DNA of 14,914 nt from Ignavibacteriota bacterium (GTDB lineage: Bacteria; Bacteroidota; Ignavibacteria; UBA10030): NCBI GenBank assembly GCA_963727825.1, contig CAVSHO010000005.1, forward strand, positions 1 to 14,914, read 5' to 3'. Below are positions 8,855 through 12,533 of the stretch, piece after piece. The translations under genes were made by a program, and so were the position numbers. A model generated the notes under the pieces. The model was given only the letters and a program-made list of their open reading frames with translations, had not been told where the DNA came from and did no database searches. The stretch's first letter is position 1. Every line of letters begins with the position of its first letter.

Positions 8855-10312
8855 TTAGTTTATCTTACGCCAGCTTGTGCCATCTTTCTTATCTTCGATT
8901 ATAAAACCAATAGTTTTCAAACCATCACGAATAATATCTGACAACGTCCAAAGCTTTTGCTTGCGCACTTCTGCTCGAATACTTACGACCAAATCCATGA
9001 GATTTGATTCTGTCTTTACTTCACCACTTGCCGATTGAATTTGGTTCGGAATAATTCCAAGGATATTACCACCGAGTTCGTTAAAGAGTTGATCAATCTG
9101 TTTAAGCGCATCAATACTAAGCTTTTGTTCTGAGTTAAGCGACTGATTTGTCTCACGTGCCAAATCAAATAACACACCGATAGCAAGCGGTGCATTGAAA
9201 TCATCGTCCATCGCTTCTAAGAAATGTTTTTGATGCGATGAAAGATCCATTCGTGCTCCATTTGTCCGCTGCTCAGATTCGGCTTTCTTTAATTCATTCC
9301 GGAGATTGCGGATGGTATTCAGCAATTTATCATATCCAGTATTCGCTCCTTGCAATGCTTCGTCGCTGAAATCCAATGTGCTGCGATAATGGCTTTGCAG
9401 TATGAAAAACCGTATTACAAGAGGATCATATTTCTTGAAGGCATCTTTCAGCGTTACAAAATTTCCGAGCGACTTGGACATTTTTTTCCCATTAACCGTC
9501 ACAAGGTTGTTATGAATCCAGTATTTCACAAACGGTTTCCCGGTTGCAGCTTCACTCTGCGCAATTTCGCATTCGTGGTGCGGAAATTGGTTATCCATTC
9601 CGCCGCCGTGAATATCAAATGTCTCGCCAAGATATTTCATCGACATTGCAGAACATTCTATGTGCCATCCAGGAAATCCTTCGCCCCACGGGCTCGGCCA
9701 GCGCATAATATGTCCGCTTTCTGCTTTCTTCCACAGTGCAAAATCAACTGGATGCCTTTTCTCTGAACGCGATTCGACACGTGTTCCTTCTACAGATTCC
9801 TCTAGTGCACGTCCCGAGAGTCTGCCGTAATTCTTAAACTTCTGCACGTCATAATAGACGGAACCGTTCACTTCATAAGCATATCCTTGATCTAGCAAAC
9901 GCTTAATAATTTCGATTTGTTCAATAATATGTCCCGATGCTCGCGGTGAAATATCCGGGCGGCCGATTCCAAGTTTATCCATATCTTCAAAATAACTGCG
10001 CGTGAACATTTCTGCTATCTGCATTGGATGGACGCGATCAAGATGCGCTTGTTTGACGAGTTTATCTTCACCTTCATCAGCATCATCGGTAAGATGACCA
10101 ACGTCGGTGATGTTTTGAATATAGCGCACCTCGTTGCCAAGATAACGCAAGTATCGAACAATGACATCGAAGGAAACATAACTTTTTGCATGACCAATGT
10201 GTGAATGGCTATACACGGTAGGTCCGCACACATACATGCCTACATATCCGTCGTGAATCGGTTTGAATTCTTCTTTATTTCGGCTTAATGTGTTATAGAT
10301 AAAAAGAGACAT
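8855..10312 (-). CDS. cysS: Cysteine--tRNA ligase
   Basis: [55 protein letters not shown] and AMDDDFN motifs. Confidence 0.99.
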
Positions 10313-10320
10313 ATAATATC

Positions 10321-10355
10321 AGGTTTTAGGTATTAAGTGATAGGTTTTAGGTTTC
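10321..10355 (+). repeat. Tandem heptamer array (AGGTnnn x5) downstream of the four-helix-bundle gene
   Basis: AGGTTTT AGGTATT AAGTGAT AGGTTTT AGGTTTC, with degenerate in-phase units GGGATTT AGATAAC continuing to 10369. Confidence 0.9.
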
Positions 10356-10360
10356 GGGAT

Positions 10361-10744
10361 TTAGATAACTTTCTTGTATTTTTTCCCGCTTCTTTCTCTC
10401 ACGCTTGCAATAAAACTATTTAGCATTTTTTGTTCTTCGGAAAGCAATTGAAGAATAGGATCAACTTTGGTTTTTGAAATAAGACCTACATTTTTAGTAA
10501 TTGTTAATTGGGTTTCAAGTTCATAAGCCGAGCCAATCGCCATCTCTAAGAATCTCTTGAAATCAGGTTCACTATTCCGACTACATCCTTCGGCAATATT
10601 TGATGGAATAGAAACTGCTGCCCGCTGTAATTGAGTCTTCAATCCATAAGTTTCATCCTTAGACAATAAAGCTGTAAGCTCATAAGTACGAATGACAATA
10701 TCCATTGCTTTTTGCCATATTAAAAGTTCTCGAAAATTTCTCAT
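10361..10744 (-). CDS. Four-helix-bundle protein (23S rRNA intervening-sequence protein / bAvd-like family)
   Basis: F.EL.IWQKAM, E.YGL..QL.RAAVSIPSNIAEG, F.RFL..A.GS..ELETQL are the signature of this family; 127 aa. Confidence 0.95.
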   Translation of the reverse strand: MRNFRELLIWQKAMDIVIRTYELTALLSKDETYGLKTQLQRAAVSIPSNIAEGCSRNSEPDFKRFLEMAIGSAYELETQLTITKNVGLISKTKVDPILQLLSEEQKMLNSFIASVRERSGKKYKKVI

Positions 10745-10782
10745 TACCTTACCTTTTATCTAATACCTTTCACCTAAAACCT
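10745..10782 (-). repeat. Tandem heptamer array upstream of the four-helix-bundle gene, inverted relative to 10321-10355
   Basis: Minus strand AGGTTTT AGGTGAA AGGTATT AGATAAA AGGTA AGGTA then ATG. It fills the whole gap between the recN stop and the ORF start. Confidence 0.9.
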
Positions 10783-12533
10783 TATTTCATCCCAATTAAT
10801 TCTCTTGCACCGTTCAGACTTGCCTCGGTTACTTCTTCACCGCTGAGTAGTCTGGCAATTTCTTGAATGCGATTTTCTTCATTTAACTTACGAATTGTCG
10901 AAGACGTACGATGTTTCGATTCGCTCTTCTCTACTGCAAAATGGCAATCTGCAAATCCGGCAATTTGCGGTAAATGTGTGATGGCGATGACTTGGTGGAA
11001 TTGCGATAAACTCTTCATACTTTTGCCCACTGCCTGAGCTATTCTTCCGCTTATGCCGACATCAATTTCGTCAAATACGAGCAACGGCAGACGATCTGCC
11101 TTGGCAAGAATTGTTTTTAACGCAAGCATAATGCGCGATATTTCGCCTCCGGATGCAACCTTAGCCAATGGTTTCAAGTCCTCACCAACATTTGTCGAAA
11201 GATAAAATTCGATAAAGTCAATTCCGCTTTGTGTTGCGTCGTAAAATTCGCGTCCCAGTTTAACATAAGCACTGTTCGCTTTGCCATCCAATTTTCCCAA
11301 CACGCGATTTTCAATCTTCACATCGAACTGTGCATTTGCAATGCCTAATTTTGCTAACTCCGTGCAGACCGATTTACTAATCTTACCTACCAACTCACGC
11401 CGCTTTGTTGAAAGACGCTGTGCAGCAGCAGAACAAGTTATTCGTTCAAGCTCAATGTACTCATTCAATTTACGAATTTCACTTTCGAAGTTTTCCGCCA
11501 TCGTAAATTCTTTGCCAATCTTCTCGCGACGTTCAATTACAGCATCCAGTGAACCGCCGTATTTTTTCTTAAGGAGCGCAATTTGACCGAGTCGTTCTCG
11601 AATTTGTTCCAAACGCTCAGGATTAAATTCAATCTTTGAATTGTAGTTCTGGATAAACTTTGTAAGTTCGCCAACAATCGCTGCTGCAGAAGCGCATTCA
11701 TTCTTTATATCTTCGAAAGTCGTATCAATCCTTGCAAGGTCTTCAAGTTGGTTGCGTGCTTTCAGTAGTAAATCATATACCGACTGCCCGCTGATATTTT
11801 CCGAATTTAGCCGGGATGGTTCTCCTTCGTAAAGTGACTGATATAATTGCGATGTTGCTTCAAAAAGTTTTTCAGAATTTTCTAAAATGCGCAGTTCGTT
11901 TTCCAGATCACTTTCTTCACCAGCACGTGGATCGACAGCGTCAATTTCTTTAATTTGAAATTCATAAAGGTCGCGCTTTTCTCTCAATTCTTTTTCCTTA
12001 AGCGAGAGTGTACGTAATTCCGTAAAAAGCACCGTTAGCCGGTCGTATGATTCGCGATATTCATCCACTAATTTATCCAAACTTCCGAATTCATCCAGCA
12101 AGCCGATGTGTGTCTCCGGTCGAAGCAATGATTGATGCTCATGCTGACCATGAAGATCGACAAGATGATCACCGATTTCTTTTAGAACCGTAAGCGAAAC
12201 AGGCGAATCATTTATAAAGCAACGTGATTGTCCTTTAATAGAAACTTCACGGCGAAGAATAAAATCTTCCTGTAATTCGATCTCATTCTGTTTCAGAAGT
12301 GCTTTTACTTTTCCGTTTTCCGTTATTCCAAAAATACCTTCAACAACAGCTTTGTCGGTTCCCTTACGTACTACATCAGAACTTGCTCGATCCCCGAGTA
12401 TGAGACTCAATGCATCGATAATAATAGATTTGCCGGCGCCGGTTTCACCCGTAAGAATGTTCAACCCGCTCTCAAATTCGATTTCGACGAATTCGAGAAG
12501 AGCGTAATTTCGGATGGTCAATGATTTGAGCAT
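10782..12533 (-). CDS. recN: DNA repair protein RecN
   Basis: Walker A TGETGAGKS, DLHGQHEHQSLL, coiled coil, LAKVASGGEISR signature, Walker B LVFDEIDVGISG, ITHLPQIA and EIARLLSG. Confidence 0.98.
   Translation of the reverse strand: MLKSLTIRNYALLEFVEIEFESGLNILTGETGAGKSIIIDALSLILGDRASSDVVRKGTDKAVVEGIFGITENGKVKALLKQNEIELQEDFILRREVSIKGQSRCFINDSPVSLTVLKEIGDHLVDLHGQHEHQSLLRPETHIGLLDEFGSLDKLVDEYRESYDRLTVLFTELRTLSLKEKELREKRDLYEFQIKEIDAVDPRAGEESDLENELRILENSEKLFEATSQLYQSLYEGEPSRLNSENISGQSVYDLLLKARNQLEDLARIDTTFEDIKNECASAAAIVGELTKFIQNYNSKIEFNPERLEQIRERLGQIALLKKKYGGSLDAVIERREKIGKEFTMAENFESEIRKLNEYIELERITCSAAAQRLSTKRRELVGKISKSVCTELAKLGIANAQFDVKIENRVLGKLDGKANSAYVKLGREFYDATQSGIDFIEFYLSTNVGEDLKPLAKVASGGEISRIMLALKTILAKADRLPLLVFDEIDVGISGRIAQAVGKSMKSLSQFHQVIAITHLPQIAGFADCHFAVEKSESKHRTSSTIRKLNEENRIQEIARLLSGEEVTEASLNGARELIGMK

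Follow-up and report, generated by a model that had tools for sequence, protein, structure and literature searches.

In the genome of an Ignavibacteriota bacterium, a gene encoding a protein of only 127 residues lies between recN and cysS with short tandem repeats on either side, and the two sets of repeats face each other. The locus raises the question whether gene and repeats together make up one discrete element and, if so, what the repeats do. The window (the whole stretch of DNA analyzed, 14,914 nucleotides) has every gene on the minus strand, in a run that includes rimM, trmD, rplS, a menaquinone gene, recN, the 127-aa ORF, and cysS, among others. The junction is made up of the following features, listed in gene order.

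10782-12533, minus strand: recN, the upstream host gene (SMC_N and AAA_23 profile matches)
10745-10782, minus strand: 5′ arm of five heptamers (Tandem Repeats Finder, lag-7 shuffles)
10361-10744, minus strand: gene of 127 aa belonging to PF05635, the 23S rRNA intervening-sequence protein or S23p family (Pfam, structure model, dN/dS)
10321-10360, minus strand: 3′ arm of heptamers reading nnnACCT on the gene strand and AGGTnnn on the plus strand (Tandem Repeats Finder)
10313-10320, minus strand: 8-nt rest of the spacer ahead of the cysS ATG
8855-10312, minus strand: cysS, the downstream host gene, with its ATG at 10310-10312 (tRNA-synt_1e and DALR_2 profile matches)

The recN-cysS insert and its paralogues

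The 127-aa ORF matched positions 1-106 of the Pfam profile PF05635 (23S_rRNA_IVP) with an E value of 1.1e-36 (125.7 bits, cut-off 33.8), and Xcc0516 (2gsc) was matched by sequence with an E value of 6.3e-21. The AlphaFold2 model of the protein (pLDDT 87.6) contains four helices, and Foldseek aligned it with Xcc0516, BT_0352 (2rld), and Avd (4dwl) at TM scores of 0.85/0.92, 0.78/0.91, and 0.77/0.87, respectively, the last at 14% identity. The protein is thereby predicted to be an up-down four-helix bundle like Xcc0516 and BT_0352. The entries 2gsc and 2rld each hold five chains, and the solved PF05635 relatives are described as pentamers in the literature (including PMC4990558). No nuclease or other catalytic domain was recognized in the 127-aa protein. 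The family background given in the original prediction was right in that PF05635 was first seen in rRNA intervening sequences and has an Avd-like fold; the family has very many members and solved structures, but no function has been established for it, and the 23S rRNA intervening sequence is the only setting in which it has been studied.

On the gene strand, the 5′ arm reads AGGTTTT AGGTGAA AGGTATT AGATAAA AGGTAAG followed by GTA-ATG, and its heptamers run directly up to the start codon through a spacer of about 37-38 nt from the recN stop. The 48-nt spacer from the ORF stop to cysS carries the complementary nnnACCT units. As had been claimed, the unit starts on the last base of the recN TAA stop (10782), which is also the first base of the 5′ array, and ends at 10321, 8 nt from the cysS ATG. 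Tandem Repeats Finder reported a period-7 array at 10321-10354 (4.9 copies, AGGTTTT) and a period-14 (2 x 7) array at 10750-10783 in the opposite strand sense. Lag-7 self-identity amounted to 0.61 in the 48-nt 3′ spacer, a value equalled by 0 of 5000 shuffles, and to 0.55 in the 38-nt 5′ spacer, equalled by 45 of 5000. The arrays fill about 34 of the 48 nt of the 3′ spacer and all 38 nt of the 5′ spacer, in agreement with the view that nearly all of the non-coding DNA around the gene consists of AGGTnnn repeats. The perfect 11-bp match at the outer ends of the facing arrays was also confirmed; it pairs AGGTTTTAGGT (10321-10331) with ACCTAAAACCT (10772-10782), and its length was reached in 10 of 5000 shuffles. 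The arms can also pair in a second register (10342-10368 with 10756-10782, 27 nt at 78%), owing to a 21-nt duplication of three units in the 3′ array, a duplication that the orthologue L009 and some of the public contigs lack. In the window, what recurs from unit to unit is the 4-nt core AGGT alone; at the three spacer positions, the two arms frequently fail to match.

The genome contains six PF05635 loci, all between co-directional genes, namely recN and cysS, a gatB-like gene and tpiA, two xanthine-dehydrogenase subunit genes, a pepF-like and a mocA-like gene, two ABC-transporter genes, and an ACT-domain gene and an aminotransferase gene (names of neighbors other than recN and cysS were read from translations). 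Inspection by eye revealed inverted periodic flanks at all six, each with its own unit of 7-8 nt (AGGTnnn, TGAGTCnn, GTGATSA, AAAGTCA, AATGAAA, and an A-rich CAAA-type unit), bearing out the expectation that the paralogues would have inverted arrays at unrelated operon junctions. The six proteins share 18-31% mutual identity, and Q38, R41, S45, N49, and E52 are invariant across paralogues with different units. Throughout the genome, Tandem Repeats Finder returned 36 arrays of period 7 or 8 at a score of at least 36, five of which have an inverted partner within 1.5 kb scoring at least 26; four of these five flank PF05635 genes, and the remaining one is a hairpin without a gene, its 20-nt arms being 90% complementary and separated by a 101-nt loop. 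Heptamer arrays without a PF05635 gene are also present in this genome.

The same design recurs beyond this genome. Scanning of species-representative genomes with the window protein alone, a search biased to relatives of its lineage, yielded 80 loci from four phyla (Ignavibacteriota, Flavobacteriia, Moorena, and one Myxococcales MAG), including relatives about 50% identical to the window protein with the units TATTAAG, CCCTACT, and GAGCGAC. The best period was 7 in 74 of the 80 5′ flanks and in 51 of the 80 3′ flanks, inverted complementarity was above all 200 shuffles in 55 of the 80 loci, and of the 74 loci in which the two neighbors could be called, 73 had both of them co-directional, counts that overstate the number of independent cases since many of the loci are orthologues. 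For the same reason, a mismatched-pair control was useless for these loci and was replaced by the shuffles.

Occupied, empty, and scarred junctions

The assembly (3.12 Mb, 14 contigs, 6.55% contamination) contains a 15-kb region three times, on the window contig C5 and on C4 and C7. Nucleotide identity to C5 is 98.2% and 96.8% for C7 (C7:190763-205232) and 93.6% and 95.7% for the C4 haplotype. BLAST alignment of the window contig with C4 and C7 breaks exactly at 10312/10313 and 10780/10781, and the recN-cysS spacer is 27 nt in both of these contigs versus an insert of 468-469 nt in the window. These results show that the recN-cysS cassette is a discrete and dispensable insert, polymorphic among near-identical strains, as the original prediction had supposed in calling it a discrete element. 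One public run also contained both a contig identical to the occupied junction and a contig whose loose end equals the C7-type empty spacer, and the 3′ arm was three units shorter in contigs from a DNA run and from an RNA library; these runs were available as assembled contigs only, which carry no information on RNA ends, strand, or level, the best covering at most 0.27 of the sampled words, and their uncovered parts are uninformative. The finding of occupied and empty alleles within one assembly and within one sequencing run is new here. In a tree of the flanks (2 x 1200 nt), the topology was (L008 empty, (window, (C4, C7 empty))) with 100/100 at each node, the occupied window thus being nested within empty alleles.

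For a wider survey of this junction, recN was taken from 40 relatives, and the DNA downstream of the 30 loci returned was inspected. Among 15 other genomes of the genus, which are not independent of one another, seven carried an intact orthologous cassette (protein identity 71-90%, all with AGGTnnn/nnnACCT arms of varying lengths), one a pseudogene (L020), three a short spacer of 22-27 nt homologous to that of C4 and C7, three a remnant of 100-129 nt that kept the 3′ arm and had lost the gene and the 5′ arm, and one another heptamer array without a gene. The gene was matched at none of the 14 recN loci outside the genus, where the gap from recN to cysS is mostly 0-50 nt if cysS follows recN. 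No target-site duplication was visible on comparison of empty and occupied alleles, in which the whole spacer differs and several of the empty alleles are scars. Empty sites, which the original prediction had proposed to look for, thus exist as short junctions of 22-27 nt, but several of the apparently empty sites are scars that keep one arm rather than virgin sites. That scars identify several empty sites as losses is likewise new here. For annotation, we note separately that the spacers around PF05635 genes belong to the element and that junctions taken as empty may be scars.

The other five sites present a similar range of states. At gatB-tpiA, 13 of the 14 other genomes of the genus with a match were occupied, one of them by a degraded copy, as were two genomes from other families. 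At least three protein lineages occur at this one site, each with an 8-nt unit in both arms (TGAGTCnn, TGAGATnn, and TGAGCCnn/TGAGCAGn). Cross-pairing of the arms gave medians of 29 for arms of the same cassette, 32 for arms of the same lineage from another genome, and 16 for arms of different lineages. The arms thus pair within a lineage and poorly between lineages, which implies at least three episodes of concerted change in both arms. The one apparently empty gatB-tpiA junction, that of L038 (61 nt), retains sequence homologous to the TGAGAT-lineage 3′ arm and is a scar.

At the ABC-ABC site, 11 of 25 loci were occupied, with two unit types, and five of the 11 occupied copies were degraded, among them the copy in this genome, interrupted by an in-frame TAA; clean junctions of 5-6 nt were found in five genomes of the genus and scars of 43-48 nt in two. 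The ACT-aminotransferase site was occupied in four of 16 loci, two of the four copies being degraded. A further six (possibly seven) loci there held remnants of 168-260 nt with both arms and no gene, the same deletion being present in two remnants whose hosts differ by about 20% in the flanking protein, and two more loci held a solo, partly expanded arm. The xanthine-dehydrogenase site was occupied here and in one relative, another relative holding a different PF05635 gene with TGATGGAn units, and the pepF site was occupied here and held a degraded copy in one relative. Regularly, the first unit opens with the stop codon of the upstream gene (TAAggt.., TGAgtc.., TGAgat..). Collectively, these sites show a decay series from pseudogene to gene-less two-arm remnant, solo arm, and clean junction, the first three of these states being common, and they show that the two arms of a cassette change in concert.

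Intact cassette genes are under purifying selection, with dN/dS values of 0.08-0.24 at recN-cysS and 0.02-0.22 at gatB-tpiA. Synonymous divergence in these genes does not track that of their neighbors, and it departs from it in both directions. Thus, between the window and L015/L019, dS was 0.42-0.44 in the gene and 1.5-3.2 in the flanks, and between the window and L010, 1.10 in the gene and 0.85-0.98 in the flanks; at gatB-tpiA, the corresponding values were 0.47 and 1.7-1.9 for L037 and L045, and 1.85 and 0.5-0.9 for L037 and L039. At the nucleotide level, the ORF was the most conserved part (about 88-91% identity), followed by the flanks (about 77-80%), with the arms the least conserved (47-70%). 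The decoupled genealogy points to exchange of cassettes or ORFs between genomes at the same site, probably combined with fast turnover of the arrays through slippage; constraint on synonymous sites would be an alternative. Since the gene and flank trees were not in topological conflict (AU test, p 0.456, the flank grouping not being rejected for the gene), the case for exchange is made by the distance ratios. A scan for donor tracts found the window flanks nearest to the empty C7 and C4 throughout, with identity to them falling to 91% in the 100 nt on either side of the insert, where no sampled occupied relative was closer. Transfer of the window cassette from L009 or L010 was rejected, the flanks staying closest to C7/C4, and an unsampled donor of the window's allele is possible.

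The further proposal that the element spreads between operon genes was not borne out. Across sites, the most similar cassette proteins in the clade were 44% identical, and with paralogues at 18-31%, recent movement between sites was not seen. The window protein is nearer to proteins of Flavobacteriia, Moorena, and Myxococcales (about 50%) than to the paralogues of its own genome; the lineages must therefore be old and must have crossed phyla. The pattern is one of long residence at one site, same-site exchange, and decay by deletion. The presence at one site of three lineages, each with its own unit variant, and the decoupled synonymous distances are, like the negative wobble test described below, new here.

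Possible roles of the arms

The reading that we prefer, with a probability of roughly one half, is proposed by analogy with 23S rRNA intervening sequences and Avd: the insert would be a cassette of the intervening-sequence type, in which a promoterless PF05635 gene lies between inverted arrays of a lineage-specific 7-nt unit that form a hairpin in the transcript, and the protein acts on this hairpin. A search for a promoter or terminator signal belonging to the cassette gene found none, and the cassette is presumably transcribed by read-through from recN to cysS; one contig from the RNA library extends from the start of cysS across the 3′ arm and the gene, and could be DNA carry-over. In the transcript, the arms would form an imperfect hairpin in several registers, setting the insert apart from the host message, and this hairpin would be a likely substrate for RNase III, a gene for which is present in the genome (C9:777234-777617). 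The putatively pentameric protein would in turn act on the arm RNA of its own transcript; Avd contacts structured RNA in the DGR particle, according to a preprint (bioRxiv 10.1101/2023.10.23.563531). Hairpin and protein together might allow the insertion to be tolerated both within operons and within rRNA.

For pairing of the arms in the mRNA, no positive evidence emerged. Both the MFE and the centroid fold of the cassette RNA pair the two arms, but the whole-cassette fold was no more stable than shuffles (z 0.12), and the gene-less two-arm remnants, folded as RNA, were likewise no more stable than shuffles. The energy of the arm-arm duplex, -30.8 kcal/mol, was matched by 35 of 1500 control gene flanks (fixed 66-nt flanks, with a heavy tail in the control), and three of the six paralogues were not distinct from control flanks by this measure, in part as a result of the start codons chosen, which left the 5′ arm inside the ORF as called. 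When the order of the units in the window was permuted, mean complementarity was 29.8 versus 30 observed, so the complementarity of the window arms is explained by the repeated 4-nt AGGT core. The same permutation placed 36 of 78 loci above their permutations at p ≤ 0.05, but moving blocks disrupts the arrays as well and so biases the test; only the null for the window was therefore used. The lengths of the two arms varied independently (Spearman 0.39, p 0.15, n=15; -0.11, n=8). Among arm mismatches in 83 loci, G.U in the transcript was counted 44 times versus 141 for A.C, where composition predicts about 1:1.3, the counts being dominated by one Flavobacteriia cluster and the A-rich sense strand; by protein cluster, A.C exceeded G.U in five, G.U exceeded A.C in two, and one was tied. 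In view of its origin in one clade and in base composition, the skew toward A.C is not decisive. Looping-out of the ORF by the arms in the mRNA, as the original prediction envisaged, is thus possible but unsupported.

Several of these results would also fit a reading that we consider unlikely, in which the arms are not mainly a stem but arrays of binding sites, in dsDNA or RNA, for the cassette's own protein, one 7-8-nt unit being one site and the inverted layout bracketing the gene for auto-regulation or end-marking. Besides the confinement of recurrence to the AGGT core with its mismatched spacer bases, the immaterial order of the units in the window, the unequal lengths of the two arms, and the absent wobble signal, this reading draws on a period fixed per lineage (8 nt in all gatB-tpiA lineages, 7 nt at recN-cysS), on a unit that differs among protein lineages at one site, and on the five chains per entry of the solved relatives. 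Unit and protein are, however, co-inherited, with about three independent changes, and their covariation is not separable from descent. Moreover, the relatives about 50% identical to the window protein have very different units, the five residues invariant across paralogues with differing units cannot read the unit, and the arms outlast the loss of the gene.

The polymorphic occupancy between strains, the occupation of one junction by different lineages, and the clean 5-6-nt ABC-ABC junctions beside occupied ones could alternatively mean that the arms act in DNA. They would then fold into a hairpin or cruciform while the DNA is single-stranded in replication or uptake, and a host enzyme or the cassette protein would use this structure for insertion, excision, or copying, making the cassette a transposase-free mobile element with a REPIN- or attC-like logic. 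The mismatch counts, read on the antisense strand, favor G.T by the same 141 versus 44, although this excess largely comes from one clade and the A-rich sense strand. We regard this reading as distinctly doubtful, given that near-identical copies at different sites were not found (at most 44% identity, and 18-31% among the genome's own paralogues), that target-site duplication was not seen, and that the arms differ among the paralogues of one genome, which makes a single trans-acting enzyme unlikely. In addition, co-orientation with the neighbors in 73 of 74 loci is unexpected for a DNA-symmetric element unless expression selects for it, and homologous recombination through conserved flanks can explain the same-site exchange.

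That the gene is an ordinary host accessory gene and the slippage-prone spacer repeats are functionless by-products is highly improbable, for although unit number changes fast (the 21-nt polymorphism), spacers at one site range over 12-121 nt and 40-190 nt, and heptamer arrays without PF05635 genes occur in this genome, an inverted unit is shared by both sides in 55 of 80 loci across phyla, inverted arrays stand at all six sites here, and both arms change together in three lineages, which drift alone would not keep.

Comparison with known systems

Cyanobacterial STRR sequences are intergenic tandem heptanucleotide repeats of variable copy number, and the arms of the cassette resemble them in all of these respects; to our knowledge, STRR have been described as free repeats without an enclosed gene. 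The Moorena relative of the window gene is flanked by CCCTACT-type arrays. MITEs and REPINs are small intergenic inserts with inverted ends and no transposase, features that the cassette shares. It differs from them in the conserved gene inside, in its ends made of tandem arrays with a copy-specific unit, and in that neither near-identical genomic copies nor target-site duplication were seen. A multicopy element of the MITE type was rejected, given paralogues that are 18-31% identical with different units and cross-site identity of at most 44%.

Homing-endonuclease genes pass through a cycle of invasion, decay, loss, and re-invasion. Like them, the cassette is found in intact, degraded, scarred, and clean states, with different lineages at one site and intact copies under purifying selection; unlike them, it has no recognized nuclease or other catalytic domain, and biased conversion is only hypothetical. 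The states documented at a single site, from intact through degraded, scarred, and clean to re-occupied, are reminiscent of this homing cycle. It is improbable that PF05635 cassettes are a new class of transposase-free self-propagating elements, the pentameric protein recognizing its own arms, in RNA or in a DNA hairpin, and biasing copying to empty alleles of the same junction and, rarely, to new junctions or rRNA helices. If they were, a cycle like that of homing genes, leading from invasion through decay and scar to re-invasion, would account for rRNA intervening sequences and for many unexplained bacterial heptamer arrays.

Avd (4dwl; DGR particle 8ub7) shares with the 127-aa protein the four-helix bundle and pentameric relatives, and differs from it in sequence (14% identity). 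No reverse transcriptase or template/variable repeat adjoins any of the six PF05635 genes, the sole RVT_1 match in the genome (C9:380466-380936) being away from all of them, and a role as a DGR component was rejected for want of an adjacent reverse transcriptase.

A search of the literature, in which subscription journals were thinly covered, returned no published account of inverted heptamer arrays around PF05635 genes outside rRNA, and the sole parallel found is the heptamers that precede the ORF of the Coxiella burnetii intervening sequence (PMC4990558). The helix 45 intervening sequence described there measures 428 nt, contains an S23p ORF, and is closed by a terminal stem of 28 bp; RNase III cuts inside this stem, where the first GACAGAT heptamer begins, and strains have two to three such heptamers (PMC4990558). 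The window cassette is similar in its size class (about 430-470 nt), in the ORF of the S23p/PF05635 family lying in the loop, in the complementary sequences that bracket the ORF, in the heptamers of strain-variable number just upstream of the ORF, and in the proneness of the ORF to decay (PMC4990558). The cassette differs in lying between the protein-coding genes recN and cysS and not in a 23S rRNA helix, in having heptamer arrays as both arms, in a protein under clear purifying selection, and in a weaker stem, an 11-bp perfect match plus 4-bp blocks versus the 28-bp stem of Coxiella; processing by RNase III was shown for the Coxiella element (PMC4990558) and is a prediction for the cassette. 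If the cassette is a general, exchangeable insert of operon junctions, rRNA intervening sequences would be linked to a wider family of elements, some orphan heptamer arrays would originate as scars of lost cassettes, and the function of PF05635 would become concretely testable. Being outside rRNA, the cassette is not a 23S rRNA intervening sequence; with this location excepted, it has all the testable features of the ORF-bearing intervening sequences.

Decayed cassettes and gene-less remnants

In the genome to which the window belongs, one of the six PF05635 paralogues has decayed, and a hairpin of array-type units stands without a gene:

C10:138943-139251 (L005), PF05635 paralogue between two ABC-transporter genes, with an in-frame TAA
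C9:713056-713204 (L236:256-405), gene-less hairpin of AAGTAAA units

The paralogue is a pseudogene, in which the AATGAAA/TTTTCAT arms remain recognisable. The AAGTAAA hairpin, with arms of 20 nt that are 90% complementary and a loop of 101 nt, may be the leftover of a lost cassette; further AAGTAAA arrays were found in the same genome at C1:18576, C1:49523, C8:32632, and C9:356189. In a relative (genome G002), a two-arm remnant lacking the gene in the ACT-aminotransferase spacer (L218) has gained two copies of a GC-rich palindrome resembling CCCTGTGGCTTGCCACAGGG, which are a REP-like element inserted in the former loop.

Coding arrays and an exception in orientation

Among the orthologous recN-cysS cassettes of relatives (L010, L015, and L019), some have an ORF that extends into the 3' array and ends in a tail of the kind ..PKSQNLMPKT; in L015 and L019, a GTG within the 5' array may serve as the start codon, five codons earlier. 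Thus, the heptamer arrays of these cassettes can become coding. At a locus from a Formosa MAG (L137), which belongs to the 25 loci that lack inverted complementarity, the 5'-flank unit is oriented like the 3' arm, with CTTAATA on both sides; this 5' array may be the end of an adjacent cassette.

Strain mixture and direct-repeat arrays

The 15-kb window region is present in the assembly as three haplotypes (C5, which is the window itself, C4, and C7:190763-205232) that are 94–98% identical, and therefore the bin is a mixture of strains, which is probably reflected in the contamination figure of 6.55%.

CAATCCN heptamer arrays flank two small minus-strand gene pairs in the same genome:

C9:1-1010 (L234), region with CAATCCN arrays
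C9:24887-26200 (L235), region with CAATCCN arrays

These arrays are long (up to 28 copies) and keep a single orientation throughout. One gene pair has a YafQ-toxin-like match that is weak, its 22 bits lying under the cut-off, and the other consists of a nucleotidyltransferase and an NTase_sub_bind/HepT-like protein. Thus, heptamer arrays in this genome also enclose toxin-antitoxin-type modules, there as direct rather than inverted repeats.
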